Assembly (NCBI GenBank): GCA_016207905.1
Contig: JACQZC010000045.1
Span: 3,614 to 67,613, forward strand
DNA from: Nitrospirota bacterium
GTDB lineage: Bacteria > Nitrospirota > Thermodesulfovibrionia > Thermodesulfovibrionales > JdFR-86
Direction of reading: 5' to 3'
Length of the DNA: 64,000 nt
Every line of letters starts with the position of its first letter. The stretch's first letter is position 1. The notes under the pieces are model-generated. The model was not told the origin of the DNA. It searched no databases and was given only the letters and a program-made list of their open reading frames with translations. Position numbers and translations under genes: made by a program. Of the stretch, positions 2,317 to 53,463 are shown piece after piece.

Positions 2317-4275
2317 CTAATGCCACATTGCCTTTTCAGGAACATATTCAAAAACCTTTATTCTTTTCACTGAGTAGCTAAGCCCTGTTGCCTTGATTTC
2401 CCTTGAGGATTCATAAAGAAGCCTGAAATGCCTGAGCCCAATGCCACCCTTTAGAAAAAGCCTCGTAGAGATAAGCCTAAAGTATCTTTCCCCTAATCTC
2501 CATGAGCCAGTTTTTTCGTCAAGGTTTGCATAATCCCTATGTTTAATGCCCAGGATGCGTGCATATTTATTTAGGCTCGGAGCGAGGTTTGTGATTATCA
2601 CATAGCGGACTTTGTTTCTACTTAAAACCCTCTGTGCCGATTCCTCGTCCTCGGAGAGCATGAATTCCACGGAGTCCAGAAGTCCATGGGTCTCGGCTCC
2701 AAAATTCGTTGCAACCGCAGGCCTTTTAGCTATGTTTTCAATCCAACTGCCTATACTCCATTCGGCAAGAACTCCGTATTCTGGCATTCGGTGTGGCTCG
2801 TAGTAGTAACTGGTTTCAGGCGTGTTTTTGCGTAGCCAGTCCATCACCTCTACAAACTCCTTCTGTATCTCCATAACCCTGAGAGGTCCCTTAGAATAAC
2901 TAAAAGACCTTACGAGGAGAATAGAAACAACAATGAAAAATAAACCCATGAAGACATTTCTCAGAGCCCTTTTCTGCCCGCAGAGTATAGTCCTTTCCAT
3001 TATCATGCCCGAAAGAAAAGCCACATTCACCGCAAGTAGGTTTTCGAATCTCAGATGAGACAGAGTCGAAAGGAAAAACACAAAGCTTGAGGTCATAAGA
3101 AATGCCATTTGAGGACGTTTCTCTCCTACTGTCAATAGCCTTCTTAGAAACCATATAATGCCCAATGGAACTGCCCAAAAAAACAGCGATAGATCCAGAG
3201 TAGGTATAATAAAGTTAAACCTTCCGTTAGGGAAAAGTATGGACTGATACTCTATGTTGTCCTCAAGCCAGATGTCGCCATGTGCCATCATTGCCCCTGA
3301 CCTCAGTATCTCCGTAGAAAAGGCAGGAACTAAAACAGCCACAAGTGCAACTGGAATCAGAAACATAATGGACTCATAAATAAGGACTCTTTTTGAAAAT
3401 CCAATTTTTCTCACACTGTAAGCAGAAAGAAAACCTGCACTTATGGTCAGGGATAAGATGGCATGAAAGTATGAGACCTCTCTGAAGCTTACATAACTAC
3501 GAACTGCGAGAATGCCTCCCAAAGCCATCCCTAAAAAAACAATGCCCTTTATGCCAAATACAATTCCTCCCAGTCTGAGTGTCCTGCCATCTTTTGGGTC
3601 AACTACATGAAGCACTATAAGCATCATAAGCCCTATAACCCAGAACTGTGTTGCCCCCCGCCAGAGGAGAATGGACATAACCCCTGCACATCCTGCTAAA
3701 AAGGCATATAAAGGAGCTCTCCAATCCTTTACCCTAAACATCCTGATAAGAAGATAAAAATAGATTGCACCAATCAGAGGCTCGATAACATTGTTATCAG
3801 GCTGTCCAACCGTAGAATAGCAGAGATAGCCCGGCATTATGCCAAAAAACAAGGCACTAAAAATCGCTGCCCTTTTGTCCATAAACTCCCTTGCAAGTAT
3901 GTATACCATAGCTATAGAAAGCATACCTATAATTGCAGGAAGGAAAACACCTACAAGCTCTACTGTCCTGGTGGATGGGCTTCCAAAGCCCACTAATTTT
4001 GCGATGAAGGCTATCATGAAGTCATAAAGTGGCGAAAGCAAATTAGGGCTTCCAACAGGATAACCTTGATAGTAATTGTGTAAAGGGATTTTCGGAAAAT
4101 CATTCAGTATCAGGAAAACCCTTCTCATGTGGTCATAAGAGTCAGGACCATAAAAATAGACCCTATCAGGTGTTATGAACTCCCTGTAAGGTAGTAGACG
4201 AAGAACAAGTGGAACTGAAAAGACTATGAAATAGACAATATGCCTTGCTTTAAACCGCATCCCTTTTAATACCAC
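2317..4275 (-). CDS. polytopic GT-C membrane glycosyltransferase, STT3/AglB-like (oligosaccharyltransferase family) with a degenerate WWDYG motif
   Basis: 652 aa with more than 10 predicted TM helices followed by a soluble C-terminal domain. The N-terminal loop YFYGPDSYDHMRR resembles the AglB/STT3 first external loop. EWSIGSWIE occupies the WWDYGxWI position. A more likely start is the ATG at 4260 (MRFKARH...). Confidence 0.6.
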   Translation of the reverse strand: MVLKGMRFKARHIVYFIVFSVPLVLRLLPYREFITPDRVYFYGPDSYDHMRRVFLILNDFPKIPLHNYYQGYPVGSPNLLSPLYDFMIAFIAKLVGFGSPSTRTVELVGVFLPAIIGMLSIAMVYILAREFMDKRAAIFSALFFGIMPGYLCYSTVGQPDNNVIEPLIGAIYFYLLIRMFRVKDWRAPLYAFLAGCAGVMSILLWRGATQFWVIGLMMLIVLHVVDPKDGRTLRLGGIVFGIKGIVFLGMALGGILAVRSYVSFREVSYFHAILSLTISAGFLSAYSVRKIGFSKRVLIYESIMFLIPVALVAVLVPAFSTEILRSGAMMAHGDIWLEDNIEYQSILFPNGRFNFIIPTLDLSLFFWAVPLGIIWFLRRLLTVGEKRPQMAFLMTSSFVFFLSTLSHLRFENLLAVNVAFLSGMIMERTILCGQKRALRNVFMGLFFIVVSILLVRSFSYSKGPLRVMEIQKEFVEVMDWLRKNTPETSYYYEPHRMPEYGVLAEWSIGSWIENIAKRPAVATNFGAETHGLLDSVEFMLSEDEESAQRVLSRNKVRYVIITNLAPSLNKYARILGIKHRDYANLDEKTGSWRLGERYFRLISTRLFLKGGIGLRHFRLLYESSREIKATGLSYSVKRIKVFEYVPEKAMWH

Positions 4276-17584: not shown

Positions 17585-18339
17585 TCGATAACCTCTTTCA
17601 AAGGCTTAACCACAACCCTGTTTGCAAACCTAAGGTCTATGTAGGCAACGGTTTCCCATCTTTTCTTAATCTCGGATTCAAGCTCAAGAAACCTCGTCAG
17701 TTTTTCGTCATACTGACCATCGCCTATCCTGACGACTGTGCCGTCAAGCTCCATCACAAGGTTGTCCTTCATAGAGTCAACACCTGTTATCTTTAACTGT
17801 TTGCCGGACATGCCGATATCTGCAACTGCCTTTATAAGGGACACTGCCTCAGAAAATGTAGATGGGTTAATGCTACCTGTGTGAGAGATGACAGGCAGAA
17901 ACTGGGCAGACTCTCCCTTAAGCTTATCGAGCTTTCTCCCTTCCTCATCTATAATGAAAACCTTATCTCCTGTCTCAAGAAGTGCAAATGGCTCTGCCTC
18001 TATGATTTTTATAATCAGCCTGTGGGGATATTGTTTCCTTATCTTTACCGACTTTATCCATGGAGACCTCAAGAGTCTCCCTGCAAGCACATTGCACTCT
18101 ATATGCATAAGGTCCTCATTGCCCCTGAGACCCATAAGCCCCTTCATCTCTTCTTCGGAAAGATGTTTATTGCCGTAAAAGACAACCTCTTTAATTGGGA
18201 AAAACGACTGCCTATATAAAAGAAATGTGCCTACTATCAGGATGCACGATGCAGTAAGGAGACAGGATAACCTCAGTCTCAATCTCCTTCTCTGGCTGTT
18301 ACGCCTTATGCTCATCCTCATGTTACTGGAGCGTCTCAT
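17581..18339 (-). CDS. ftsQ: cell division protein FtsQ (POTRA domain)
   Basis: 252 aa with a basic N-terminus, one TM segment, and POTRA/FtsQ-type sequence. The position between ddl and ftsA is conserved. Confidence 0.8.
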   Translation of the reverse strand: MRRSSNMRMSIRRNSQRRRLRLRLSCLLTASCILIVGTFLLYRQSFFPIKEVVFYGNKHLSEEEMKGLMGLRGNEDLMHIECNVLAGRLLRSPWIKSVKIRKQYPHRLIIKIIEAEPFALLETGDKVFIIDEEGRKLDKLKGESAQFLPVISHTGSINPSTFSEAVSLIKAVADIGMSGKQLKITGVDSMKDNLVMELDGTVVRIGDGQYDEKLTRFLELESEIKKRWETVAYIDLRFANRVVVKPLKEVIE

Positions 18340-19259
18340 CTTTTCACCTTTGATTTCTCTATAGCAGACCTCAGAATCTCCTCAACGAGCATGGGAAACG
18401 AAAGACCCCTATGGCTTGCAATCTTTGGGAGAAGACTTGTCTCTGTCATTCCGGGGATTGTGTTTACCTCAAGGACATAGGGCTTCCCAGCTCTGTCAAG
18501 CCTGAGGTCAACCCTCGTTGCGCCTTCTGAGCCCAATGCCTGATGTGCAGAAAGTGCAGTGTCCTTTGCCTTCTCGTATGAGGCATCGTCGATCTCAGGC
18601 GGGATGATATACTCTGTCATGCCTTCTGTGTATTTTGCCTCATAGCTATAAAACTCAACTAATGGTCTTACCTCAACTCCGCCAAGAACAATGTTATTCA
18701 GGATGCCTATATGAATCTCTTTTCCATCTATATATTCTTCTGCTATAGCCACACCATTAAACGAAAGTGCTGTTTCAACTGCCTCCCTGAGCTTAGTCTC
18801 ATCCCTGACAATGCTAACTCCAACACTCGAACCTTCTTTCTGAGGTTTTACGACGATTGGCAGAGGTATCTCCGGGATTTTAAATGAGGTCAGTTTCTCG
18901 AATTTAGGAACTGCGAGTCCTTCCGAGATAAACATCACCTTCGATGAAAGTTTGTCCATTGCTAACGAAGAGGCTAAGACACCTGAGCCTGTATAGGGGA
19001 TTTCCATAACCTCAAGGAGTCCCTGAATACAGCCATCCTCTCCAAAGCCTCCATGAAGGGCAAGAAAGGCAATCTCGATTTTTTCTCTTCCGAGAACTTT
19101 ACAGATATCCCTTCCAACATCTATGGCAGATACATCATAGCCCAGATTCCTCAGGGCATTAAAGATGGCTTTGCCGCTTCTAAGAGACACCTCTCTTTCT
19201 GCCGAGATGCCTCCCATAAGAACGCCTATTCGTTTTTTAGTCAGCAGTTTCCCCTCCAA
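18336..19259 (-). CDS. ddl: D-alanine--D-alanine ligase
   Basis: 307 aa with typical Ddl sequence (GGISAEREVSL.SG, HGGFGEDG.IQG, an ATP-grasp C-terminus ending EVNTIPGMT). Confidence 0.95.
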   Translation of the reverse strand: MEGKLLTKKRIGVLMGGISAEREVSLRSGKAIFNALRNLGYDVSAIDVGRDICKVLGREKIEIAFLALHGGFGEDGCIQGLLEVMEIPYTGSGVLASSLAMDKLSSKVMFISEGLAVPKFEKLTSFKIPEIPLPIVVKPQKEGSSVGVSIVRDETKLREAVETALSFNGVAIAEEYIDGKEIHIGILNNIVLGGVEVRPLVEFYSYEAKYTEGMTEYIIPPEIDDASYEKAKDTALSAHQALGSEGATRVDLRLDRAGKPYVLEVNTIPGMTETSLLPKIASHRGLSFPMLVEEILRSAIEKSKVKR

Positions 19260-20175
19260 TGATTTTTATCTCCGGTTTAAGGATTACACCGAATTTTTTC
19301 TTTACCTTTGATGAGACCATCTCCATGAGCCTGAGAAAATCCTCTGCATTACCGTTTCCTTTATTGATGAAGAAATTTGCATGTTTTTCGCTCACCTCGA
19401 TATCTCCAGCCCTCATGCCTTTACATCCAGCCGAATCTATAAGTTTTCCAGCAGAGACACCTCGTGGATTCTTAAACACGCATCCTGCAGACCGTTTACC
19501 AATGGGTTGAATACTTTTTCTTTCTTTAAGAAAACCGTCTATCCTCTTTGAGACATCCATAGGGTCATCAGGGAGTAACCTTAGCGTAGCCCTTGTAATA
19601 AAAAAACCATGAGGCAGTTTTACGCTTCTATATCCAAATACTACATCCCTTACATCATAAAGGCTGATATTTCCTAAGGCATCCATCATCGAGATATCGA
19701 TAATGACATCCTTTATCTCATAGCCGAATGCACCTGAATTGCCTGCAATTGCACCACCGAGTGTGCCTGGAATGCCCGAAAGCCCCTCGATGCCTTTGAG
19801 TCCTGTTTTCCTCGATAAAGCTACAATCTCCTGAAGCAAAAGCCCTGAATCAGCGATTATCGTAAATCTTTCGTCCTCAACCCTTAGTTCATTAAACATG
19901 CATAACGAGACGACTATGCCACGGATACCTTTGTCTTTTACAAGCACATTCGTGCCTTTCCCTATTGGAGTAATGGGTGTATCCGCATCCCTTGCAAGTC
20001 GTAGCACATGCCTGAGCGAGACGATATTTTCTGGAAATGCTAAGACATCGGCAGGACCTCCGATTCTTAAAGATGTATGTCTTTTCATTGGCTCACCAAA
20101 CAAAACCCTGCCCTTAAACACATCCCTTGAAAATATCTCTTTCACTAAAGTCTCTTCCTTCTTTAAGACATTCAT
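19237..20175 (-). CDS. murB: UDP-N-acetylenolpyruvoylglucosamine reductase
   Basis: 312 aa with an FAD-binding domain (LRIGGPADV, GKGTNVLV) and a MurB C-terminal domain. Confidence 0.93.
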   Translation of the reverse strand: MNVLKKEETLVKEIFSRDVFKGRVLFGEPMKRHTSLRIGGPADVLAFPENIVSLRHVLRLARDADTPITPIGKGTNVLVKDKGIRGIVVSLCMFNELRVEDERFTIIADSGLLLQEIVALSRKTGLKGIEGLSGIPGTLGGAIAGNSGAFGYEIKDVIIDISMMDALGNISLYDVRDVVFGYRSVKLPHGFFITRATLRLLPDDPMDVSKRIDGFLKERKSIQPIGKRSAGCVFKNPRGVSAGKLIDSAGCKGMRAGDIEVSEKHANFFINKGNGNAEDFLRLMEMVSSKVKKKFGVILKPEIKIIGGETAD

Positions 20176-21545
20176 CTTTCCATTAGCCTCTTAAGTATCT
20201 CCTCGCCTACTTTGTAGACATCGCCTGCCCCGAGGGTTAAAAGTGTCTCTCCTAACTTAAGATGTCCTGATATATGTTCAATCATTTCCTGTCTGTCAGA
20301 GATAAATATGACGCCTTTGTGCCTTTTTTTAATCTTCTTAGAAAGTGCCTCTGATGTTATGCCCTTTATGGGTTTTTCTCCTGCAGGATAGATATCCATA
20401 AGGAAAAGTGTGTCTGCATCGTCAAAGGATTTCAGAAACTCCTCAAACAGGCTTTTTGTCCTTGTATATCTATGAGGCTGGAATATAACGGAAAGGCTTC
20501 CTTTTTTAATGGACTGTCTAAGTGCCCTTAGGGTTGCCTTTATCTCAGAGGGGTGATGCCCGTAGTCGTCATAGAGCTTAATGCCTTTAGTTTCACCTTT
20601 GAATTCAAGTCTTCTCTCGATGCCCTTAAAACCTTCTAAAGCCTCTTTTATCTTTTTAATATCTATCTGAAGCTCTAATGCCACTCCTATAGCGGCAAGG
20701 CTGTTAAGGGCATTGTGAGTGCCTGCAAGCGGAACCTGAAACCTTCCAAGATTTTTGCCCCTTAGGTGGACATTAAAGCTCACAGCCATCCCATGTATTT
20801 TTAAGGCATCTGCCCTAAGCCCTGCATCATCCGAAAAGCCGTATGTAAGTGTGCGCCTGCTCACGGATGGAATAAGCTCCCTTATATACTCGTTGTCTAT
20901 GCATAAGATGGAAATGCCATAAAACGGAACCTTATCCATAAAAGAAAGGAATGCCGATTTAAGACGGTCCATTGTCTTAAAAAACTCCATATGCTCTCTG
21001 TCTATGTTTGTGACCACCGAGATAGTGGGGCTTAGCTTAAGAAACGAGCCGTCGGATTCATCAGCCTCAGCAACTATGAAGTTACCCCTGCCCAATCTTG
21101 CATTAGTTCCTAATGCATTGAGTTTTCCGCCGATAACCACAGTCGGGTCAAGCCCTGCATGGGCAAGGATGGTCGATATAAGGGATGTGGTTGTTGTCTT
21201 TCCATGTGCTCCTGCAACTAATACGGAATATTTAAGTCTTCCAATCTCAGCGAGCATCTCAGCTCTCGGTATTACGGGTATTGCCCTTTTGTTTGCCTCG
21301 ATGACCTCGACATTTTCCTTTGACACAGCAGATGAGATGACAACCACATGAGCAGTCTTTATGTTTTCTTCCCTGTGCCCGATATAAATCTTTGCACCAA
21401 GTTTTCTCAGCCTCTTTGTGTTGTCGGAGTCTTTTAAATCCGAGCCAGTTACCTCATAGCCTAAGTTCAGAAGCACCTCTGCTATGCCGCTCATGCCGAT
21501 TCCGCCTATTCCTATGAAATGTATCACTCTGTAGCGCTCAAACAT
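20172..21545 (-). CDS. murC: UDP-N-acetylmuramate--L-alanine ligase
   Basis: HFIGIGGIGMSGIA, P-loop GAHGKTTTT, EADESD, and NIDREHMEFF Mur-ligase motifs. Confidence 0.95.
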   Translation of the reverse strand: MFERYRVIHFIGIGGIGMSGIAEVLLNLGYEVTGSDLKDSDNTKRLRKLGAKIYIGHREENIKTAHVVVISSAVSKENVEVIEANKRAIPVIPRAEMLAEIGRLKYSVLVAGAHGKTTTTSLISTILAHAGLDPTVVIGGKLNALGTNARLGRGNFIVAEADESDGSFLKLSPTISVVTNIDREHMEFFKTMDRLKSAFLSFMDKVPFYGISILCIDNEYIRELIPSVSRRTLTYGFSDDAGLRADALKIHGMAVSFNVHLRGKNLGRFQVPLAGTHNALNSLAAIGVALELQIDIKKIKEALEGFKGIERRLEFKGETKGIKLYDDYGHHPSEIKATLRALRQSIKKGSLSVIFQPHRYTRTKSLFEEFLKSFDDADTLFLMDIYPAGEKPIKGITSEALSKKIKKRHKGVIFISDRQEMIEHISGHLKLGETLLTLGAGDVYKVGEEILKRLMER

Positions 21546-21547
21546 AT

Positions 21548-22657
21548 TCAGGACTTCTTCTTCAGGTTTATAAGGCTTAAGGCGATGTTAACGACCTTCT
21601 CTCCTGAATCCGGCATCCCCATGGCAAGGCTCTGTTTTTTCATCCCAGCCCTCAGGTCCTCGGACATATATATCTCCTTTATGTTTTGGGCAAGGACTTC
21701 GCCCCTTAACTCAACCTCCAATATCAGTCTTGAAGCCCCTGCCTCGGCGAGTTTCCTTGCATTGAACTCCTGATGTCCCCGAGCATAAGGATAGGGAATT
21801 AATATGGCAGGCTTTCCTAATGCCGTAATCTCTGCAAGCGTCGTTGCACCTGCCCTCGATATAACAAGGTCAGCAACCGAGTATGCCTCTGCCATCTGAT
21901 ATATGAAAGGCGTAACCATTGCAAATATGCCGCTTTTCCTGTACGCATTTCTTATACTTTCATAATCGGCATCTCCTGTCTGATGCAAAAACTGCACATT
22001 GCCCTTTATGTCAAAAAGGTAATTAAGACAGTTGACGACTGCATTGTTTATGCTTCTTGAGCCTGAGCTTCCGCCTGAGACGAATACCGTAAACATATCC
22101 TCCTTTAAAGAGAAAATCTCATATGCGGATTTCCTGTCTAAGTGAGGAGAAAGCATCTTACGCCTGATTGGGTTTCCAGTAAGACGGGTCTTTGAGATTG
22201 GAAAAAATGTAATGCTTTCGTGATAGGTGACTGCTATGGCATCCACAAACCTTCCAAGCACCCTATTAGCCATGCCTGGCACAAGGTTCTGCTCCATGAT
22301 AAGGGTTGGAATGCCCAAAAGGCATGCCATTCCTACAGGCACAAAAGAGGCATATCCGCCTGTACCTATCACTATATCGGGCTTGATAGCCTTAAGAAGA
22401 TCCCTCGAATAAAAAACCGCACTACACATCTTTATCAAGGACTTTATCTTTTTAACAGGCGATTTCCCCACAAAGCCCTCGGCAGGTATAAACCTGACTG
22501 GATAGCCCTCCTTGGGTATCAGCCTTGACTCTATGCCATGCTCTGTGCCTATGAAAATCACCTCTGCCTTTTCATTTCTATGTTTAAACTCCTCTGCCAC
22601 TGCTATGCCGGGCAATACATGTCCGCCTGTGCCTCCGCCTGCAATCACGATTTTCAC
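21548..22657 (-). CDS. murG: undecaprenyldiphospho-muramoylpentapeptide beta-N-acetylglucosaminyltransferase
   Basis: The N-terminus IAGGGTGGHVLPGIAVA and overall GT28 sequence. Confidence 0.95.
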   Translation of the reverse strand: MKIVIAGGGTGGHVLPGIAVAEEFKHRNEKAEVIFIGTEHGIESRLIPKEGYPVRFIPAEGFVGKSPVKKIKSLIKMCSAVFYSRDLLKAIKPDIVIGTGGYASFVPVGMACLLGIPTLIMEQNLVPGMANRVLGRFVDAIAVTYHESITFFPISKTRLTGNPIRRKMLSPHLDRKSAYEIFSLKEDMFTVFVSGGSSGSRSINNAVVNCLNYLFDIKGNVQFLHQTGDADYESIRNAYRKSGIFAMVTPFIYQMAEAYSVADLVISRAGATTLAEITALGKPAILIPYPYARGHQEFNARKLAEAGASRLILEVELRGEVLAQNIKEIYMSEDLRAGMKKQSLAMGMPDSGEKVVNIALSLINLKKKS

Positions 22658-23844
22658 TGCACATTCCCATAGACTTTTCTTCTTGCCCGCTTAAGCTTCA
22701 TAATGTCCTCTATCCCATCGAGCCTGTTGACCATTGCCTTTTCATGTCCTGCCTTCGAGACATTAAGCAGTATGCCTATTCCTGTCATGTTTACAAGCAA
22801 AGATGAGCCTCCATAACTTATAAATGGAAGGGGCAAGCCCTTTGTCGGTGCAAGCCCGGTCACTACAAAAAAGTTCATGAGTGCCTGAACCGCTATCATT
22901 ATCGTCAGACCAAACGAAAGATAATATATAAACGGCTGGGTGCTGTTTTTATCCGCAATCAACACACCCCTTATAAAGAGAAATGCAAAGAGAAAAACGA
23001 CGAATGCGGCAATTATGAACCCTAATTCCTCGCCCACTATAGAAAAAATGAAATCCGTATGCACCTCGGGCAAAAAGGAAAGTTTCTGTCTTCCGTTTCC
23101 AAGACCAACTCCTGTAAGACCTCCACTTCCAAGGGCAATAAAAGACTGAACGAGCTGAAATCCACTTCCCTGTGCATCCTGCCATGGGTTAAGAAAGGCA
23201 GTTATCCTTTTCAGCCTGTAAGGCTCCATGAGAAGCTTTAATACTACAGGCACTGCCATTGCAAGCAAAGCCAAAAGGTATCTCAGCCTGATGCCTGAGA
23301 TGAAAAGCATAGAGACAGTCAGGATGCCGAGAGTAACGGTTGCCCCGAAATCAGGCTGTAAAAGGAACATTACCTGAAATACTGCCATTACCGAAAGAGG
23401 CACTGCAATAGAGTAAAACCTTTCTGCCTTGAACCCCGAAGAAGACATATAACTTGCAATGAAGATTACCATCGAGAGCTTAGCAAGCTCCGAGGGCTGA
23501 AAGGTCATTACTCCAAGCCTTATCCATCTGGTTGCCCTGCCTGCAGTAACACCAATGCCCGGGACAAAAACAAGGATTAAAAGAACGAAAGAAAGAACGA
23601 GAAGGGGTATGGAGAGCTTCATAAGAAGCCTTGGCTTTACCCTATATGCAAAGACCATCATAACGAGGCTCACTGCCATTGTAAGGAGATACCTCAGAAA
23701 ATAGTAAAACGGTGTAAGGTTCTTTTTCTCAGGCGTTATAACGGATGTCGAGCTATACACCATAAGTGCACCAAAACCCATAAGGGCAAAGACAATAATA
23801 AGAAGCCATCTATCGAATGTCCTAAATGGTGCTATAGTCTCCAC
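22654..23844 (-). CDS. ftsW: FtsW/SEDS-family peptidoglycan glycosyltransferase
   Basis: A 396-aa polytopic SEDS protein (FQPSELAKL, LPEVHTDFIFS, PFISYGGSS). Its position in the dcw cluster fits. Confidence 0.9.
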   Translation of the reverse strand: METIAPFRTFDRWLLIIVFALMGFGALMVYSSTSVITPEKKNLTPFYYFLRYLLTMAVSLVMMVFAYRVKPRLLMKLSIPLLVLSFVLLILVFVPGIGVTAGRATRWIRLGVMTFQPSELAKLSMVIFIASYMSSSGFKAERFYSIAVPLSVMAVFQVMFLLQPDFGATVTLGILTVSMLFISGIRLRYLLALLAMAVPVVLKLLMEPYRLKRITAFLNPWQDAQGSGFQLVQSFIALGSGGLTGVGLGNGRQKLSFLPEVHTDFIFSIVGEELGFIIAAFVVFLFAFLFIRGVLIADKNSTQPFIYYLSFGLTIMIAVQALMNFFVVTGLAPTKGLPLPFISYGGSSLLVNMTGIGILLNVSKAGHEKAMVNRLDGIEDIMKLKRARRKVYGNVQ

Positions 23845-24965
23845 ACTGCCTCCTTGAACCTCTCCCCTCTGTCCTCGAAATCCCTGAACATGTCAAAGCT
23901 TGTGCAGGCAGGCGAAAGAAGAACTACATCACCCCTGTCAGCAATCTCTTTTGAGAGCTTGACCGCAGAGCTCATGTCATTTTCAAGCATGCATGGAACA
24001 ATGTCTCCTAATGCAGACCTTATCTTTTCTTTAGCCTCTCCTATGAGAACTAAAGCCTTCACCCTTTCCCTTACGAGGTCTCTCAGGGTTGTGAAATCCC
24101 CTGCCTTATCCCTTCCGCCTGCAATAAGGACGATGGGGTTCGAGAAACTCTCGAGGGATTTAAGCACAGCACCTACATTCGTGCCTTTTGAGTCATTTAC
24201 GAATGTCACGCCATTTAGCTCTCTTACGAATTCAAGCCTGTGTGGAAGTCCTCGGAATTCCCTGAGTGCCTGCCTGATTGCATCGGCGTGACAGCCTGCA
24301 AGGAGAGCCATGGCAGAGCCTGCCATGGCATTCTCCAGGTTATGAACCCCTTTAATGGCGATGTCATCCAAAGACATAAGAAAACCTTTTCCAATGGGCA
24401 TATCGTAGTAAATCCCGTTGCCTTTTAAGTAAACACCCTTTACTTCATGAAGCCTCGAGAAGAAAAAAACCTTTGACCTTATATCTCCTTTGAGTGCCTT
24501 CAGTGTCTCAGGGTCATCGTGCTCTCCTGTTATTGCATTTCCAATATTTCCGCCAAGGATTGTGTTTTTGCCTGCCTTTTGGAGCATAAGGTTAAGAAGC
24601 GAAGTGGTAGTGGATTTTCCATTAGTGCCTGTGACCGCATAAAACGGAATCCTCTCTCCTACAACCCGATATGCAAGCTCAAGCTCGCCTATTGTCTTTA
24701 TGCCCTTTGCCCTTGCCTTCCCAAGAGGCTCTATACCCATTGGCACACCAGGGCTTACTACAATCAGGTCTATGTCATGCATATCCTCAGGATGACCACC
24801 GAGCATCTGCTTGGCAGAAGGCGAAAGCATTTTTATAAATTCCATAAGCTCTTCTTTGGATTTCTTGTCGGTAACAGTTACATCTGCACCGAGACTCAAA
24901 AGCAGGTTAGTCGCACAAACACCGCTTTTTTGAAGTCCAAAGACAAGCACCTTTTTGCCCTTCAT
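23832..24965 (-). CDS. murD: UDP-N-acetylmuramoylalanine--D-glutamate ligase, internally shortened (about 377 aa)
   Basis: Rossmann N-terminus VLVFGLQKSG, P-loop GTNGKSTTT, and a MurD-type C-terminal half (GVHNLENA, GLPHRLE, NDSKGTN, LLSPACTSFD). The ATG at 24965 has AGGAG 5 nt upstream. The E-SS-Q and N-x-x-x-DH-D central-domain motifs are absent (see findings). Confidence 0.8.
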   Translation of the reverse strand: MKGKKVLVFGLQKSGVCATNLLLSLGADVTVTDKKSKEELMEFIKMLSPSAKQMLGGHPEDMHDIDLIVVSPGVPMGIEPLGKARAKGIKTIGELELAYRVVGERIPFYAVTGTNGKSTTTSLLNLMLQKAGKNTILGGNIGNAITGEHDDPETLKALKGDIRSKVFFFSRLHEVKGVYLKGNGIYYDMPIGKGFLMSLDDIAIKGVHNLENAMAGSAMALLAGCHADAIRQALREFRGLPHRLEFVRELNGVTFVNDSKGTNVGAVLKSLESFSNPIVLIAGGRDKAGDFTTLRDLVRERVKALVLIGEAKEKIRSALGDIVPCMLENDMSSAVKLSKEIADRGDVVLLSPACTSFDMFRDFEDRGERFKEAVWRL

Positions 24966-24996
24966 GGTAACTCCTACATCCACCTCCATATCATCC

Positions 24997-26079
24997 TCAC
25001 CTCACCTTTAGTGTTGCAAGACTTAAAAGGGCAAGCATAATGCCTGCTATCCAAAACCTTACTATTACCTTTGGCTCGGGCCATCCTTTAAGCTCAAAGT
25101 GGTGATGTATCGGAGCCATCTTGAAGAGCCTTTTGCCTGTTAGCTTAAAGGATGCTACCTGAAGCAAAACCGAGATGGTCTCTGCAACGAATATCCCGCC
25201 CACAAGGGCAAGCACTATCTCATGTTTTGTAATGACTGCCAGTGTGCCTAATGCACCTCCAAGCCCTAAAGAGCCTACATCGCCCATGAATATGTCAGCA
25301 GGGTATGAGTTATACCAGAGGAATCCCAATGCCGCTCCAAACATCGCACCGCAAAACACCGTTAGCTCTCCTGTGGCAGGCAGATAAAGCACCTGTAGGT
25401 AGTCTGCAAGCCCTCTATGTCCTGATATATAAACGAGCACACTGGTTGCAAGGGTTGCAATTCCCACAAGACCTATGGCAAGCCCGTCTATGCCGTCTGT
25501 AAGGTTCACTGCATTGGATGCACCAACCATAACGAACATTGCAAACGGTATGTAAAACACCCCTAAGTCGAAAAGCCATCTCTTAAAGAAAGGCACACTT
25601 AAAACAGCAGGGAACGGGTCATCGGGGTTTATATATAAGAAGATGGTTATAGCCAGAGAAAGCACTATCTGAAAGCCAAACTTATAGCATGGCCTTAACC
25701 CCTTTGGGTTTTTCTTTGCTACCTTTAGGTAATCGTCTGCAAACCCGATTGCACCGAATCCTATAAGGCTCATGAGCATCATAAGGACATAGATGTTTTC
25801 GAGATTCCCCCATAAAAGCATAGAGGTCATTATAGAGGCGATTATGACTATTCCGCCCATCGTGGGCGTGCCTGCCTTGCCCATATGAATACTTGGTCCA
25901 TCGTCCCTTATCTGCTGGGTAATCTGAAGTCTCCTTAATGCCCTTACAAGCAAAGGGCAAAGGACATATGTAAGGAAAGTCGCTGTAAGGATTGCCAGTG
26001 CAGTCCTGAATGTTATGTACCTGAATACATTAAATGGAGAGTATATCTCATGAAGACTATAAAGGAGTTTATAAAGCAT
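24997..26079 (-). CDS. mraY: phospho-N-acetylmuramoyl-pentapeptide transferase
   Basis: 360 aa with typical MraY sequence (GTPTMGG, NAVNLTDGIDGLA, PIHHHFE). Confidence 0.95.
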   Translation of the reverse strand: MLYKLLYSLHEIYSPFNVFRYITFRTALAILTATFLTYVLCPLLVRALRRLQITQQIRDDGPSIHMGKAGTPTMGGIVIIASIMTSMLLWGNLENIYVLMMLMSLIGFGAIGFADDYLKVAKKNPKGLRPCYKFGFQIVLSLAITIFLYINPDDPFPAVLSVPFFKRWLFDLGVFYIPFAMFVMVGASNAVNLTDGIDGLAIGLVGIATLATSVLVYISGHRGLADYLQVLYLPATGELTVFCGAMFGAALGFLWYNSYPADIFMGDVGSLGLGGALGTLAVITKHEIVLALVGGIFVAETISVLLQVASFKLTGKRLFKMAPIHHHFELKGWPEPKVIVRFWIAGIMLALLSLATLKVR

Positions 26080-27430
26080 CTTCTATCACCCTTTCCATCT
26101 TCATTCCTCTTGAGCCTTTAACGAGAACTATGTCTTCATCCCTCATCTCGTTAAGGAGAAGGCTTTTAGCTGACTCGGAATCTTCTGCCTTTACCGAGAC
26201 TCCAGAGAAACTATCCGCAGAAAGACTCATAAGAGGACCAACTGCTATTAACAAATCCACAGGCAGTCCAGACATCCATGAGCCTAATTTTCTATGGGCA
26301 GTCTCTCCATAAGGACCTAACTCAAGCATATCTCCAAGAACAGCAATCGCCCTGCCACTCCTACCCTCTTTAAGCCTTATCATCTCCTTTATTGCCTCTT
26401 CCATGGATGCAGGGTTTGCATTATATACATCGCTAAGCAGGGTTACATTAGCCATCCTCTTTATCTCAAACCTCATTGGTACTCCCTTAAAGTCCTGAAG
26501 CCCACTCTTTATATCCTCAGTGCCGATGCCAAAGATATAGCCTATAGATGAGCCTGCAAGTGCATTGTAGATATTGAAGAGCCCTCCAACCTTGAGATTC
26601 ACCATAACCGAGTCTTTACCTATGTGAAGAAGAAACTTCGAGCCCCTGTCAGAGACCTCTATATCGTCTGCATATACATCCAATTCTTTGCCATGTATGC
26701 CATATCTTATGATTCTACCCTTATAGCCATTTATTCCTTCAAGGAGGAAACTGTCATCTGCATTCACCGAAACAGTGTGAACCGTCTCGAGCAGTTCACA
26801 CTTTGTCTTTCTCAGTGTGTGAATATCTCCAAAGCCCTCAAGGTGTGCATGCCCTATGTTTGTGACAACCCCATAGCCGGGCGAGGCTATAGCACAAAGC
26901 TCTTTTATGTCACCCGGTGCACTTGCACCCATCTCGAGGACAACTGCATCGTGCTCAGGCTCGATGCTCGAAAGGCTAAGCGGAAGCCCAATCTGGTTAT
27001 TAAGGTTTCCTGAGTTTTTAAGGACCCTGAATTTTGAGCCGAGTATTCCTGCGACAAGCTCCTTTGTGGTTGTCTTTCCATTCGTTCCAGTTATAGCAAT
27101 AACAGGTATGTCCTTTTTGATTCTTAGAAAATGGGCTATGTCCTGAAGAGCCCTCAAGGTATTTCCTACGCATATCAGGGTCTTTTTCCTCTTAAAACCA
27201 TTTGGAGGCTCAGAAGGCGGAATGCTTACCAGAGCACCATCTCCTTTTTTTAATGCCTCATGGAGAAAGTCATGCCCATCGAAATTATAGCCCTTCAGTG
27301 CTATGAAGAGCTCTCCATCTTTGATTGTCCTCGAATCAATGGATATGGCAGGGAACTCTTCCATTTCGCCATAAATGCGTTTGCCTCTGGTTGCCTCTAA
27401 TATATCCTTAAGTATAAGTGTTGCCATCAT
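26069..27430 (-). CDS. murF: UDP-N-acetylmuramoyl-tripeptide--D-alanyl-D-alanine ligase
   Basis: P-loop GTNGKTTT, EMGA, and NIGHAHLEGF motifs. It lies between murE and mraY. Confidence 0.93.
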   Translation of the reverse strand: MMATLILKDILEATRGKRIYGEMEEFPAISIDSRTIKDGELFIALKGYNFDGHDFLHEALKKGDGALVSIPPSEPPNGFKRKKTLICVGNTLRALQDIAHFLRIKKDIPVIAITGTNGKTTTKELVAGILGSKFRVLKNSGNLNNQIGLPLSLSSIEPEHDAVVLEMGASAPGDIKELCAIASPGYGVVTNIGHAHLEGFGDIHTLRKTKCELLETVHTVSVNADDSFLLEGINGYKGRIIRYGIHGKELDVYADDIEVSDRGSKFLLHIGKDSVMVNLKVGGLFNIYNALAGSSIGYIFGIGTEDIKSGLQDFKGVPMRFEIKRMANVTLLSDVYNANPASMEEAIKEMIRLKEGRSGRAIAVLGDMLELGPYGETAHRKLGSWMSGLPVDLLIAVGPLMSLSADSFSGVSVKAEDSESAKSLLLNEMRDEDIVLVKGSRGMKMERVIEDAL

Positions 27431-28884
27431 TTCATCTTTTCCCTTATTGCCTTTTCTGCCTCCTGCCTGTCTGAAAATGGTAGCCTCTTACCTTTTGTTT
27501 CCTGATAATCCTCATGCCCTTTGCCTGCAATGATAACCGAGTCTTCTGTGCCTGCCTCCATGACTGCCTGCCGAATTGCAGAGCTTCTATCAGGAACGAT
27601 GTGGTAGTTTTCTTTTGTAATCCCTGAGAGTATGTCTTTTATAATCTCCATTGGCTCTTCTGCCCTTGGGTTGTCGGATGTTATATAGACTATGTCGCTT
27701 AGCTCAGTGGCAGAGCTTCCCATAAGAGGCCTTTTGCCCCTGTCCCTTTGTCCTCCACAGCCAAACACTGTTATGACCCTTCCCCTCTGCTTCGGGGTTA
27801 CATCACGGGCAGTAAGGATAAGCATCCTTAGTGCATCTTCTGTGTGGGCATAATCTACCACGCAAAGGAAATCCTGTCCCAAAGAGACTTTTTCGAACCT
27901 TCCCTTTACATTTCCCGTTTCTTTTATAGCAGTCTTTATCACATCCCATTTAATGCCCATGGATAGGGACACGGCAGTCGAGGAAAGGATGTTATACACA
28001 TTCGGAATGCCAACCATTGGAGAGTTAACCCTGAAATTGCTTTCACCATGCCTTATGACAAAGGAAATGCCATCAACCGAGTTTTCGATATCCACTGCCT
28101 TCAATTCAGCAGCCTTTTGGATGCCATATGTTATTACCTTTGCCTTTGTATGCCTTATAAGCTCCTTTCCATATGGGTCATCGATATTTATTACTGCAGT
28201 TCCGTTTTTATCGAGAAGCTCTACGAAAAGTCTTTTCTTTGCCTCAAAGTACTCCTTCATTGTCCCATGGAAGTCCAGATGGTCTCTTGTGAGATTCGTA
28301 AACACAGCAACACTGAATCTCGTATAATCCACCCTTTTTAAAGATAGGGCATGCGAGGAGACCTCTGAGACCGTATGACTTAATCCAGCCTTAAGCATCT
28401 CAAAGAGGAGCGACTGAAACTCCAATGCCTCTGGTGTGGTATGGGGCGCAGGGAAAGACCTATCGCCTATGACATAATTTATTGTGCCGATAAGTCCTGT
28501 CTTTTTACCGCTCTTCTCAAGTATGGATTTAATAAGATACGAGGTAGTCGTCTTTCCATTAGTGCCTGTAATGCCTATAACAGAAAGCCTTTCTGAGGGC
28601 CTTTCGTAAAAATTATTAGAGACAAAGGCAAGTGAAGACCTTGTGTCAGGAACTTGGATAAATGGGATTGCAGACTGTTTGTTCTCGCAAATGACTGTAG
28701 ATGCACCTCTTTTAATGGCATCCGGGATAAAGTCATGTCCATCGAGGTTAAGCCCTTTCAAAGCAACAAAGAGGTCTCCGGGCATGACCTTTCTTGAGTC
28801 ATAGTTAATCTGCCTGATGTCTATATCGGTGTCTGCACTGATGTTAAGTGTTTCCATATCCTCGATAAGCCTTTTCAATGTCAT
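27427..28884 (-). CDS. murE: UDP-N-acetylmuramoyl-L-alanyl-D-glutamate--2,6-diaminopimelate ligase
   Basis: P-loop GTNGKTTT, EVSSHAL, NLTRDHLDFH, and a DNPR motif consistent with meso-DAP specificity. Confidence 0.95.
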   Translation of the reverse strand: MTLKRLIEDMETLNISADTDIDIRQINYDSRKVMPGDLFVALKGLNLDGHDFIPDAIKRGASTVICENKQSAIPFIQVPDTRSSLAFVSNNFYERPSERLSVIGITGTNGKTTTSYLIKSILEKSGKKTGLIGTINYVIGDRSFPAPHTTPEALEFQSLLFEMLKAGLSHTVSEVSSHALSLKRVDYTRFSVAVFTNLTRDHLDFHGTMKEYFEAKKRLFVELLDKNGTAVINIDDPYGKELIRHTKAKVITYGIQKAAELKAVDIENSVDGISFVIRHGESNFRVNSPMVGIPNVYNILSSTAVSLSMGIKWDVIKTAIKETGNVKGRFEKVSLGQDFLCVVDYAHTEDALRMLILTARDVTPKQRGRVITVFGCGGQRDRGKRPLMGSSATELSDIVYITSDNPRAEEPMEIIKDILSGITKENYHIVPDRSSAIRQAVMEAGTEDSVIIAGKGHEDYQETKGKRLPFSDRQEAEKAIREKMK

Positions 28885-34767: not shown

Positions 34768-35955
34768 ATGACTCCTGAAACCATATACCTTGACAACAAT
34801 GCAACTACATGCATCTCTTTAGAGGTTATCTCGGAGATGATGCCTTATATCAAGACCCTTTATGGAAATCCATCGAGCATGCACACATTTGGCTCCTCTA
34901 TAAGGGAAAAGATTGAGGAGGCAAGGGAAAGGGTTGCCTATTTAATAGGCGCAGAGCCAGAAGAGATAGTCTTTACGAGCTGTGGCACTGAAAGCGACAA
35001 CACAGCACTTATGAGCGCAGTGGATGCATATCCTCATAAAAAACATATAATCACCACCTCTGTAGAGCATCCTGCTGTTCTTAACTTCGTAAGCCATCTC
35101 CAGAAGACAAAAGGCTTCAGAGTGACTTACTTACCTGTTGACGGTAAGGGAAATCTGGACATGGATGAGTTCCTTAATGCCATTTCCGAAGAAACCTCGA
35201 TAGTCTCTGTGATGTATGCAAACAACGAGACAGGTGTGATCTTCCCTCTCAAGGAGATAGCCGGAATAATAAGGGAGAAGTCCATGGAATATGGAAGAAA
35301 AATCCTCTTTCACACAGATGCTGTTCAGGCAGTAGGAAAGATTCCTATAAATGTAAAAGAGCTGTCTTCTCTGGACATGCTATCCATCTCCGGGCATAAG
35401 CTTCATGCACCAAAAGGTATAGGCGCACTTTATGTAAGAAAGGGCATGCGGTTTCATCCATATATAATCGGAGGACATCAGGAAAATGGAATGAGGGCAG
35501 GGACCGAAAACACTGCCTCTATAATCGGTCTTGGAAAGGCATGCGAGCTTGCAAGCGAAAGGCTTCCAGATGATGACTCCTATATCGGAAGGCTCAGGGA
35601 CAAGCTTGAGTCGAGCCTTCTTGAAAGGTGCTCGCCAGCGAGGATAAATGGAGATAAGGAGAGGCGTCTGGCAAACACGACGAATATAAGCTTTGATTAT
35701 GTCTCAGGCGAGGCAATACTCGTTAAGCTCAACGAGCATGGTATATGCGTGTCAACTGGCTCTGCATGCGCATCGGGCTCTGGAGAGCCAAGCCATGTGC
35801 TTAAGGCAATGTCTGTGCCTCCAGAGGCAATACACGGCTCTATAAGGTTTTCCCTCGGAAGATATAATAAAGAGGCAGAGATCGATAAGGTGGTTAAAAT
35901 CCTGCCTGCAATCGTAAATGAGCTGAGGGAGATTTCGCCTCTTAGCAAATGCTGA
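34768..35955 (+). CDS. nifS: cysteine desulfurase, NifS/IscS class (aminotransferase class V)
   Basis: YLDNNATT, the PLP lysine motif SGHKLHAPKG, and the active-site loop SACASG. 395 aa. Confidence 0.9.
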   Translation: MTPETIYLDNNATTCISLEVISEMMPYIKTLYGNPSSMHTFGSSIREKIEEARERVAYLIGAEPEEIVFTSCGTESDNTALMSAVDAYPHKKHIITTSVEHPAVLNFVSHLQKTKGFRVTYLPVDGKGNLDMDEFLNAISEETSIVSVMYANNETGVIFPLKEIAGIIREKSMEYGRKILFHTDAVQAVGKIPINVKELSSLDMLSISGHKLHAPKGIGALYVRKGMRFHPYIIGGHQENGMRAGTENTASIIGLGKACELASERLPDDDSYIGRLRDKLESSLLERCSPARINGDKERRLANTTNISFDYVSGEAILVKLNEHGICVSTGSACASGSGEPSHVLKAMSVPPEAIHGSIRFSLGRYNKEAEIDKVVKILPAIVNELREISPLSKC

Positions 35956-45506: not shown

Positions 45507-48500
45507 TTGAACTGAAACCTGAATTTTATATCTCCTCCGACACTGCCCCTTTCATCCCTCAGCCCTACTAAAGAGACATTGCCTGCAAGGAAATACTCTA
45601 ATTTGAGCACCTGCTCTTGAGCACCAACTGCAGTGGAGTAAGTGGCAAAGAGCCGCTCTCCTAAAAGTTTTTTTGTAACAGTAACCCTCGGCACAATAGA
45701 GCCTGATGATTTGGATATGTAGGGGTCTATCGTAGCCCTGTCTATGCCTGTGATGTCCTTTAACCTCTCCTCTATCACATCCTGATATTTGCCTGTAAGG
45801 AAAGATGCAGCTTCGGCTGCACCAATACTGCCTTCGAGTCCCTTCAGGTTTTCTCCAAAGTCTCCGACTGTCAACAGGCTTAAGATTTCAATCTCTCCAA
45901 GCGGTGGGTCAGAATAAAGGGACATGTGAAAGCGGTCTACCTGTCCTTCGAGGCTTAATCGGATATGGTATCCCTTTGAGAATGTCTCGGCTATTATTCC
46001 GAAAAATGGTCCTGCCCTCAGGTGCTCTGCATAATCGGCAGTTGCAGTGAGTATCTGAAATTCACTATTTCTGAAATAAACCCTTCCATCTTTAGCCTCT
46101 ATCCTTCCAAATAAAAGCGGACTGCCCACTGTGCCTTTTAAAACCATATCTACTTTAAGGGATGCCCTTGCTATGTTGTTGTCAACTGTAATATTGTCCG
46201 AGCCAGAAACCCTTACGCTCAGATTCATTCTGTCAAGGTAAGGGCTTGGTTTGCCTGCCTGTTTTGTTTTTTTAGATGATATAAGCCAGCTTTTCCACTC
46301 AAAGCTCTCTCTGTACCTTGCCCTGTTTATCGTCAACTCTCCTGTAATGTCCTGTGATTGTGCCGTGCCTTTTAAAACGAGATTTCCTCCTAAGTTCACC
46401 GAAAAGTCCTTTGAGATGGAGGCAGTAATATCTTTTATCTCTGTGTCCAGATAAAGCCTTTCTATCTCAAAACCGCTTAGACTAATCATACCTTTAAGTC
46501 CAATCTCTCCTCCGCCAAACCTTGCGTGTGCCCTCTGAAAAACAATCCTTCTACCTTCTACTGTAAGATAAGCATTTATTGCAGTAAGATGTTGTGGAAT
46601 GCCTTTCAAGGCAACCGTTCCGTCAGAGACAGAAAGACTGCCATTTATCACTGGATTTTCCCAGTCTCCTTCAAGCGTAAGCATAAAGTCGGAAGTGCCT
46701 CTCAGTATCGAAATCCTATTTGAAACACCCTTCAGGATCGAAAGTGGAGATTTGCCTTCAATGGAGATGTCATAGTTTCTGCCAACCTCAACTGCCCCGG
46801 CTATACTAAAAGAGGCATCTCCACTTCTCATTACGGTCTTTAAGAGAGAGACCTTTCTGTCAAAGACCTTGAGCCTTACCTCAGAGTCATTGATAATCTC
46901 TTGACCAAACATAGCCACATTCAGATACGAGAGCCCTGCATCTGCCTCGATATGGTTCTTTGTGCCTTTAAGATAAACAGAGCCCTTCATGGTTAATGCA
47001 GAATCCGCAGGCACATCCCTTAGAAATGAAAAAAGCAGAAAATCATATCTTCCGCTTCCTATATCTACCTCTGCGCTCCATGGCAGTTCCTCTGCAAGGG
47101 TTGCATTTGCCTTGATGCCGAGCATTCCATCGAGCACTTTAGCATCTAAAAAGACATCCCTTCCTTTTAGCTCTGCCTTTAGGATGCCGTCTCCTATAGC
47201 TTTCCCCTTAAAAATTCCTTCTGAAAGCCATCCCTTAAGAGACACCTGAGGGTTATCGAAGGACCCCCTGCCCTCCATGAGAAAGTTTAATGCATAGTTG
47301 ACAATGATTGGCTTTCGGAGTAAATCCTTCAGATGAAGTCGGGTTGAAGATGCGGTGAAGCTAAAATCCTTGTTCCTCGAAAACCTACCCTTCAGGGATA
47401 AGGAGGACTCAGCCTGCCTGAATATTGCATTATCCACATTGAAGTCATTTAAGTCATAGCAATAACGAAATGACGCAGTGGAAATCGGAATATCGTATAG
47501 CTCTACATCTTTTAGTTGGGCAGAGCCTGAAATCAGGGGTGCTGTGCCCTTTATAGTTAAATCGGAGCTAAGACTGCCCTTTGAAGGTATATCTGTCTTT
47601 AAGACCTTTATTAGTCCTCCGAGGTCAGCCTTTTGGACTGAGACCGAAAGGTCATAGTCTGGCTCTTTTAAGTCAAACACCTTTAGGGCAGAAGGAAACA
47701 TTACCTTGCCCTTTGCCGAAATCTCTCCTCCTTCGCCCAGACCAATTAATTGTCTTATCTCAAGGAGGCTTTTCCTATAAGAAAATGAGCTTACGACATT
47801 GCCTATCGCATAGTCATCCAATCTTGCCCCTGACGATATAACATCCATCTCTACGAGAGGGTCATCGAATGTTCCAGTCACCTTGCCTCCTATCTCGGCT
47901 TGACCTGTGAGTCTCTTAAAATAAGGAGACATAAGGTCAAATACATCCGAGGTTATGCCTGTGCCTGACATCTCGATAGTCTTTGAGTTTAAATTTAGTG
48001 TGCCACTGATAAGGGCATCCGACTCAGCAGTCTTGATGCTTATCTCGGAAAGGCTGAGCACTCGGTCTGTCATCTGAAAACTTCCATCCGCATACTTTAT
48101 TCTGCCCAGAGGATGATTAAGGGTCTCAACCGAGACAAATGAAAACCTGCCTTTTGGATTAAAGGCATAACCCGAAGAATAAAGCTCGCCTGTCACCTTT
48201 CCAGATGGAAGCCTTAATCTGGAAACCTTGATTAATTCAATCAAAGGAGGGCTATCAACATCCCTGACCCTAACCATGACAGAGTAGGGCTTTCCTTTCG
48301 GGATGCTCATGGATGCCTCAAGTGTGCCTTTGCCATTATAAAGTCTTGCTATTCCGTTTTTAAACTTCATGCTCCCGTCTTCGTAAGAGACACTGCACTT
48401 AAGGTCATCCACCTTAACGCCAAAAAGCGTGCCTTTTTTCAATCTTGCATCTGCATTGCCTTTAATGTCATTTATATTGCCTGTGAGGTTTCCCCTAAAG

Positions 48501-49438: not shown

Positions 49439-49679
49439 CCATAGCCTCCACCATAATAGTATACATATATGAGTAAGCTAAGGGTATAAATGTCAATTAT
49501 TTCTTATTCCTGAGCTTTGCCCCAAACCCCAGTTGCTTTAGGTGAAGCGCATCTGCGATGTCCTTCATGCCCAAGAAAAGTAACCAAAAGAATCGCACCC
49601 ATGAAAATTTCGGTCTCTGACCACTGAAATTTTCTAAAGGGGGCTATCAAGCCAATTTAGAAATGTTGCCTTTTCTTCC

Positions 49680-50021
49680 TTACGGCTGTTCAATTAGCTT
49701 GAGGATGGATTCCTTAACCTTTGCAAAAATTTCGTGCTTTACCCTACCAAATGTCTTCAGGACTATTAACTTATTCAGGGCATATATCTTGTCAGCCCTT
49801 ATCATGCTTGTGACCTTTAAGTTGCCTTCCTCTAAATCATCTGCAGTCAATATGACGGTAAAATCTCGAGGCTCAACATTTGAAGTAAGGGCAACTACTA
49901 CAATATCTTCGTTAGCTTCATTGTATTTATCTGAGGAGATTATAACAGCAGGTCGTTTTTTCTGAGATGTCAGATTTGTAAACGGTATAGGGATAAGGAC
50001 TATATCCCTTTGTTTAAGCAT
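49680..50021 (-). CDS. mazF: MazF/PemK-family type II toxin (endoribonuclease)
   Basis: MLKQRDIVLIPIPFTNLTSQKKRPAVIIS...VVVALTSN...SMIRADKIYALNK is the PemK/MazF pattern. Confidence 0.8.
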   Translation of the reverse strand: MLKQRDIVLIPIPFTNLTSQKKRPAVIISSDKYNEANEDIVVVALTSNVEPRDFTVILTADDLEEGNLKVTSMIRADKIYALNKLIVLKTFGRVKHEIFAKVKESILKLIEQP

Positions 50022-50211
50022 TGTTCCAGATAGCGTCGTCTATTGGATTGTCCCAGAATTTAAGGCTGCTTTCTGCTGCCTGCATCATCTCAAAGGATTC
50101 CTCATCAGGCAGTATGATAACCTCAACCTTTGCTCCTTCAGGAAATGGTAGCTTTGGTAAATCTATCGTGCCGTTTTCCTTAATAACAGAATGATATTTA
50201 TATGCCTTCAT
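50014..50211 (-). CDS. type II antitoxin partner of the MazF-like toxin
   Basis: A 65-aa ORF overlapping the toxin start by 8 nt. It has an N-terminal swapped-hairpin-like segment (GTIDLP...PEGAKVEVIILP) and an acidic tail ending FWDNPIDDAIWNNA. Confidence 0.65.
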   Translation of the reverse strand: MKAYKYHSVIKENGTIDLPKLPFPEGAKVEVIILPDEESFEMMQAAESSLKFWDNPIDDAIWNNA

Positions 50212-50463
50212 CCTTGCCTCCTCTGTCTCTATTTTACCTTAATCCTTCTTTAAAATCACCGGGCATGCTAAAAAAAGTTAGTGCCCTCAAAAATGTACTT
50301 GTCCCTATTGTTCTCTACTATTGTTCTATTGTTCGGCTTCCATCTGCAACAAAAGAAAAATTAGAAGTGATGCTGGCATAAAAAGTTAGGGGGGAGGGAA
50401 GAACAAGTGAGCCGTTTTTTTCTTTTTTTTACCATTTCGTCCCTATTTACCATTTATTTTTAC

Positions 50464-51294
50464 CTAACCTGTAATCTTGGGCCTTTCTTTTGCATCTATT
50501 TTGTCTTTGCGTTTACTGGTTAATTTCTTTATTGATTCTTCGGCTGGCAAATCTTCTGGCATTGTTCCACCGAGTTTTTTAATAGTGGCACGGACTTCCG
50601 CGCCTACTTTCTGATGTGTATTAATAGCACCCCTTTCATTATTTATGCTATCTCGGATAAGCTTTTCTTCGGTCTGTGTGATTCTAAACTCATTTGCAGC
50701 CAATTCGGTTCTTCCTGCACAATCAAGCAGGTCTTCCTTAGAAGGTATATTCTTTTTCTGCTTTATTTCAGCTAACCCCATTTCATAGAGACCTCTATAA
50801 CCAGCACTATGAAATAAAGCGTATTTTTGAACACCAGCGTTTTGAGCGGTGCTTGTTAAACTAAGATTTGCATTTTTGACTCGTTCTCTAAGCTGAAGAC
50901 GCCGTTCATCTGCTGTAAGTTTGTCATATTTTTCCTGTCGCCGAGTTTGGATAGCAAAATAGGTTTGTGCTATGCCTATTTCCGGCTTACTACTATCACC
51001 ATTCATTGCAATTAGATAGCAAGCATATCTCGTGAGAAAATAGTCTCCTTTTTTTCGTTGAGCGCCACTCCCTATTAAGACCATTTTCATGGTATCAAGA
51101 AAATGGTCATTAGGGTCAATTCCTGTGCTTTCACATGCCATACGGGCTTTTTGGATTACCTTCTGAAAATTTTCCCATGAGGAGTATCCAAGAATTTGTT
51201 GAATATCACGCCCCATCCAGTATTCCCCACCGTTTTTTGTAGACTTCCTTGCATTGTCTAACTGCCTGATTATCTTATCTAAATCTTCTTCCAT
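50464..51294 (-). CDS. dinD: DNA-damage-inducible protein D
   Basis: Strong resemblance to E. coli DinD as I recall it (TYFAIQTRRQE, GRTELAANEFRITQTEEKL, LGGTMPEDLP). Confidence 0.85.
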   Translation of the reverse strand: MEEDLDKIIRQLDNARKSTKNGGEYWMGRDIQQILGYSSWENFQKVIQKARMACESTGIDPNDHFLDTMKMVLIGSGAQRKKGDYFLTRYACYLIAMNGDSSKPEIGIAQTYFAIQTRRQEKYDKLTADERRLQLRERVKNANLSLTSTAQNAGVQKYALFHSAGYRGLYEMGLAEIKQKKNIPSKEDLLDCAGRTELAANEFRITQTEEKLIRDSINNERGAINTHQKVGAEVRATIKKLGGTMPEDLPAEESIKKLTSKRKDKIDAKERPKITG

Positions 51295-51365
51295 AACAAA
51301 CCTCCAAAATTAAAGTATGGGGTAATATAGCATGCTTCAATAATTAAATGCAACATATTTTTTAC

Positions 51366-51395
51366 TTGACACCATATTTTCCTGTATGGTATCAT
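51366..51395 (+). promoter_or_regulatory. candidate sigma70 promoter
   Basis: TTGACA (51366-51371), an 18-nt spacer, then TATCAT (51390-51395). The track's ATG at 51386 falls inside it, which favours the downstream ATG at 51419 as the start. Confidence 0.4.
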
Positions 51396-51418
51396 TTTCT
51401 AAAAAAAGAGAGGGGAAT

Positions 51419-51865: not shown

Positions 51866-51933
51866 GATAAATATTATAGGAAGAAAAAATTCTTGAATAA
51901 AAAGTATGTTATTTTCTGTAGCTTCTCCGCAGA

Positions 51934-53361: not shown

Positions 53362-53463
53362 CCCAAATCAATTATATAAAATTTTGAAATTTTTTTGTAA
53401 GTTACTTTGTATGAGTAAAGGGGGAAAGAGGGGGATTTAGAGAAAGGGGACTAATGTCAAAAT

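Follow-up and report, generated by a model that had tools for sequence, protein, structure and literature searches.

A murD gene with an in-frame deletion of 207 nt in the dcw cluster of a Nitrospirota MAG

The most likely reading is that of an ordinary murD, the gene for UDP-MurNAc-L-Ala:D-Glu ligase, deposited with a 207-nt deletion that is not representative; it lies in the standard dcw cluster of a groundwater-type Nitrospirota MAG. The deletion is firmly established as specific to one record and not a lineage trait; normal murD is present at the same locus in the same population. The normal allele of the population at this locus is a full-length MurD of 454 aa. By ancestry, context and HMM score the gene of the window (the whole stretch of 64,000 nt that was analysed) belongs to the MurD family, without the catalytic-core features of that family.

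The murD gene and its product

The dcw cluster is complete, with the gene order mraZ-rsmH-ftsL-ftsI-murE-murF-mraY-murD-ftsW-murG-murC-murB-ddl-ftsQ-ftsA-ftsZ. The murD ORF lies on the minus strand at 23832–24989 and, counted from the first ATG, encodes 385 aa. Translation more likely begins at MKGKK (24965), for a protein of 377 aa, the length put forward in an earlier note on this DNA (about 377 aa). The upstream neighbour, mraY (24997–26079, minus strand), is intact, and its protein is 100% identical in three Logan runs. The start of the downstream neighbour, ftsW (22654–23844, minus strand), overlaps the murD stop, an arrangement that the in-frame deletion leaves unchanged. The remaining dcw genes are all intact and differ from those of full-length strains by base differences alone; the MraY and FtsW protein sequences are identical. 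As the earlier note had it, murD is closely hemmed in by its neighbours (mraY ending at 24997, ftsW starting at 23844) and the missing segment is not hidden elsewhere: in tblastn of the 64-kb window it finds the MurE and MurC paralogues alone and is encoded nowhere else. No second murD was found by tblastn within the 64-kb window.

The retained N-terminal part (24522–24989, minus strand) comprises the MurD-like N domain, the P-loop GTNGKST (24609–24629, minus strand) and GGNIG; both motifs align to those of E. coli MurD (K115, N138). The retained C-terminal part (23832–24515, minus strand) comprises the last strand of the central domain with the small sheet and a complete Mur_ligase_C. Between them, GGNIGNAITGE is directly joined to HDDPETLKALKGDIRSKVFFFS / HDDPETLKALKG. 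PF21799 (MurD-like_N) is matched at residues 4–93 with 40.5 bits, and PF02875 (Mur_ligase_C) over profile positions 1–127 of 127 with 51.7 bits. PF08245 (Mur_ligase_M) is matched over profile positions 1–43 of 200 alone, with 24.9 bits (cut-off 24); the complete central ATPase domain is absent. The same profile is matched in whole by MurC, MurE and MurF of the cluster (103–194 bits) and at positions 1–199 by the 454-aa allele (116 bits). TIGR01087 (murD) scores 318.4 bits with the window protein (cut-off 211.95) in two separate stretches, protein residues 161–382 corresponding to profile positions 218–439 and profile positions of about 145–217 being unmatched; the full-length allele scores 435.6 bits in one stretch, 1–439 of 441. 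Alignment to the solved MurD of S. agalactiae, 3lk7, is likewise split, with residues 2–143 on 8–149 and 161–372 on 235–443, and about 69 residues missing. The ORF reading, the truncated PF08245 match and the split 3lk7 alignment confirm the earlier claim that central-domain motifs are wanting in this murD. The paralogues have them all, also as claimed: EADESD and NIDREHMEFF in MurC, EVSSHAL and NLTRDHLDFH in MurE, EMGA and NIGHAHLEGF in MurF.

The gene resembles known MurD (TIGR01087; E. coli 1UAG/2UAG/1E0D, S. agalactiae 3LK7) in its mraY-murD-ftsW position, N-terminal domain, P-loop and C-terminal domain, and differs in lacking the equivalent of E. coli residues 147–211, with the Mg2+/ATP ligands and carbamylated Lys198. 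To our knowledge, no characterised MurD is without these catalytic residues. With MurC, MurE and MurF of the cluster it shares the three-domain architecture of ATP-dependent amide ligases and the P-loop, whereas these three possess a complete Mur_ligase_M.

The product has the same sequence as MBI4823637.1 of NCBI ('hypothetical protein HY805_05345', MAG Nitrospirae bacterium), which is encoded on a contig of 72,342 bp. This record is labelled 'hypothetical protein' by NCBI, not MurD, despite a score above the TIGR01087 cut-off. The label presumably results from the split, incomplete TIGR01087 match.

Limits of the deletion and residues lost

Compared with the full-length murD on a Logan contig (L001), the window has one indel, a segment of exactly 207 nt (69 codons, in frame) that L001 has and the window lacks. 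Measured against the 454-aa allele, this agrees with the in-frame loss of 60–70 residues proposed earlier. The junction, at window 24516–24521 (minus strand), reads GGAGAG-CACGAT-GACC. The full-length allele reads GGAGAG-CTCGAT-AAAG at the left breakpoint and TTAAAC-CACGAT-GACC at the right, 207 nt apart. The deletion-junction sequence of the window murD is AACAGGAGAGCACGATGACCCTG; the full-length junction sequences are GGAGAGCTCGATAAAG and TTTAAACCACGATGACC, also written GGAGAGCTCGATAAAGTGG and GTTTTAAACCACGATGACC. The codons lost are 157–225 (LDKV...LVLN) of the 454-aa protein: LDKVDEADCAVIEVSSFQLESIEEFKPTIAVILNVTPDHMDRYRSMDEYRTAKERIFQKQDKEDFLVLN.

The ends of the deletion are alike in the imperfect 6-mer C(T/A)CGAT alone, with one unambiguous base of microhomology. 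There is no N-gap at the deletion site, and no direct repeat of at least 8 nt at 207-nt spacing in the full-length allele. A classical assembly collapse between direct-repeat copies, for which the 6-mer at both segment ends could speak, is therefore very improbable and, with no flanking direct repeat, essentially refuted; 5/6 matching bases are far below any assembler k, and the Logan assemblies cross the region without trouble. Of the assembly collapse suggested in the earlier note, the assembly problem is retained as the leading reading and the collapse proper is not.

A 12-nt inverted repeat, 92% complementary (GAGAGCTCGATA / TATCGAGCTTTC; L001 3804–3815 / 3849–3860), starts exactly at the left breakpoint (window 24516–24526). 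The 261-nt region folds somewhat better than shuffles (z = −2.1). The repeat is only suggestive; it could have favoured slippage or template switching, in vivo or in library PCR.

Deleted residues 157–225 align to L147–N211 of E. coli MurD, including E157, N178, H183 and K198 (numbering from the 8v8y and 1e0d alignments, with an offset of 22 between 8v8y and native numbering and with K115 and N138 retained). E157, H183 and K198 had been placed in the missing segment by the earlier note, correctly. In E. coli MurD, E157 and H183 (with N178) are Mg2+/ATP ligands and K198 is the carbamylated lysine. The ligand equivalents in the full-length allele are E169, N190 and H195 (Glu157, Asn178, His183), all absent from the window protein; the Lys198 equivalent is K209, invariant in 46 relatives and inside the deleted segment. 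In the alignment of these relatives, which are 59–76% identical to the 454-aa protein, 15 columns of the deleted segment are invariant: E169, S171, F173, Q174, L175, F181, N190, D194, H195, D197, R198, Y205, K209, D220 and N225.

The AlphaFold2 model of the full-length allele has pLDDT 89.9 and pTM 0.86. That of the window protein has pTM 0.58, pLDDT below 50 at residues 148–162, with the junction disordered, and lower confidence around the P-loop. By the full-length model, the deletion removes strands 165–170, 185–188 and 221–225, helices 172–175 and 202–213 and part of helix 153–162, so that 3/6 core beta-strands of the ATP-binding central domain are gone. Judged from sequence and models, the window MurD as encoded would not be expected to bind ATP/Mg2+ or to ligate, and is predicted to be inactive.

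A functional 'minimal' MurD, ligating without residues 157–225, is scarcely credible. The TIGR01087 score (318 vs cut-off 212 bits) and the retention of the P-loop and of the N and C domains are compatible with it; the equivalents of E157, N178, H183 and K198, the 15 invariant columns and three core strands are gone, the modelled junction is disordered, and the architecture occurs in no relative. The real minimal MurD considered in the earlier note also finds no support in the distribution of the deletion: it occurs in this one record, and independent assemblies of the same population have at this locus a full-length allele of 99% identity.

The full-length allele and coexisting haplotypes

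In a search of 5.8 billion protein clusters, the exact window MurD protein was found once, in NCBI only. Next comes P0002, a 454-aa protein with 99% identity from the Logan assembly of SRR12113406. Among the matches listed, 119/119 other homologues are 440–518 aa long and contain PF08245; the shortening relative to orthologues thus stands, orthologues of the window's length being the opposite of what was found. The full-length protein can be aligned over its entire length with solved MurD structures (E = 1e-84 to 2e-63). It is encoded on L001 (SRR12113406, 9,664 bp), which is colinear with window 18873–28329 at 99.86–99.97% identity. Contig L003 (SRR12113402) is full-length across both junctions and L004 (SRR12113404) across the left junction; among the Logan contigs, none carries the deletion. 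Over the 36.4 kb of the window to which Logan contigs of five runs could be compared, identity is 99.9–100% and there is no other indel. The window contig is accurate elsewhere, and the murD deletion stands alone as a local anomaly. The source study of the MAG is presumably also that of the SRR121133xx/34xx runs, as the near-identity of the sequences indicates. In JGI metagenome contigs the junction 36-mer has 0 matches, but the shared left-flank 37-mer also has 0, so the population is not in that collection. GTDB representative genomes scanned with the full-length protein gave best relatives of no more than 46% identity; the source MAG is not in that collection.

Contigs L003 and L006 (SRR12113402), L004 (SRR12113404) and L007 (SRR12113405) start or end inside murD, at L001 3842, 4437/4454 and 4375. 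These ends are consistent with low coverage or graph branching, and they never match the end-points of the deletion (L001 3809, 4016).

Eight substitutions relative to the full-length allele of L001 are clustered at 24240–24363 (minus strand), within 124 nt and about 155–280 nt downstream of the junction. Five are synonymous third-position changes; the amino-acid changes are three in all (E->D, P->H, T->A). L003 is a mosaic of both haplotypes with 2/8 of the substitutions on a full-length gene, and the nearby SNPs are therefore not linked to the deletion. Homology-facilitated illegitimate recombination, with the SNP cluster as donor tract, was considered and not adopted: 158 identical bases lie between the junction and the first SNP, and L003 has two of the SNPs on the full-length gene. 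Further SNP clusters between the window and Logan contigs are at 17755–17758 (ftsQ, 3 changes in 4 nt), 46720–46760 (TamB-like gene, 3 in 41 nt) and 48226–48428. At each cluster the window haplotype is private, and its combination occurs in none of the Logan contigs. Look-ups of the window FtsQ allele, for runs with the window haplotype, and of the ORF at 34768–35955 returned nothing on record, and the exact window MurD protein had no entry in the contig index. Several closely related haplotypes coexist at the murD locus. The clustered, non-scattered differences suggest short recombination tracts or multi-nucleotide mutations among coexisting strains, and the window may derive from a distinct strain or sample of which no independent assembly was found.

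At about 49595–53460 the window has a low GC content, 0.37–0.38 vs about 0.44 elsewhere. Its genes are for an N6/N4 DNA methyltransferase with a fused Mrr-like nuclease domain, for a Bro-N protein and for a PemK-type toxin. Logan contigs stop at the border of the stretch (49565/49595), which probably represents a small mobile or defence island.

Origin and meaning of the deletion

In bacteria that make peptidoglycan, murD is essential. Strain-variable stretches are where assemblers and scaffolders take odd paths. Because murD is essential, the site is strain-variable and nothing else among the wall and division genes is damaged, the deletion of the record probably does not represent a viable genome; its artefactual origin is inferred from the sequence evidence. 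It would have entered through assembly, by a path choice of MEGAHIT or of scaffolding in a strain-variable stretch. It might otherwise have come from a chimeric or PCR-deleted library fragment, e.g. a duplicated chimera, or from a rare non-viable variant, e.g. one picked up at low coverage. The source study of the MAG is probably He et al. 2021 (PRJNA640378; PMC7906910). Its methods, MEGAHIT followed by IDBA-UD scaffolding, often of co-assemblies, would then probably describe the making of the contig. The window resembles known local errors and strain-variant paths of short-read MAGs in its single isolated structural difference, in the strain-variable stretch and in the absence of that difference from independent assemblies. 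It differs in having neither repeat nor N-gap at the site and in keeping the frame, so that the common marks of misassembly are wanting; the mechanism is inferred.

Several observations speak against an artefact. There is no long repeat to explain a de Bruijn collapse, and a k-mer assembler needs at least a few reads across the junction; a random event would be in frame, as this deletion is, with a 1-in-3 chance; and the window haplotype is private at 17755–58, 24240–363 and 46720–60. These observations favour a real and very recent strain-level deletion, in a strain about 99.95% identical to the full-length ones and with the dead murD compensated by a second murD, by polyploid heterozygosity or by a wall-deficient state: the in-frame event kept the overlap with the ftsW start, and the mostly third-position changes near the deletion resemble genuine strain variation. 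Such a deletion is nevertheless unlikely. It would inactivate an essential gene where no second murD is found in 64 kb and where the other cell-wall genes are all intact, as in full-length strains; one record in 5.8 billion clusters has it, and the nearby SNPs are uncoupled from it. The inactivated copy compensated elsewhere, also raised in the earlier note, is conceivable only as an allele. It is distinctly improbable that a natural Nitrospirota strain lives with a dead MurD, by way of a second murD, multi-chromosome heterozygosity or a wall-deficient lifestyle, the truncated protein perhaps being a scaffold in the divisome or a Mur complex.

Should the deletion prove genuine and fixed in a strain, an essential cell-wall ligase would have been lost in nature, a rare case that calls for an explanation; present evidence points elsewhere, to a non-representative sequence in the deposited record. 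For quality and annotation, MBI4823637.1 is to be flagged: it should not be cited in support of an unusual peptidoglycan pathway or of a 'MurD missing' entry in metabolic reconstruction, nor should a minimal Mur ligase be modelled on it. The gene of the window is a damaged murD allele, an ordinary known gene with a record-specific defect, and not a new Mur ligase.
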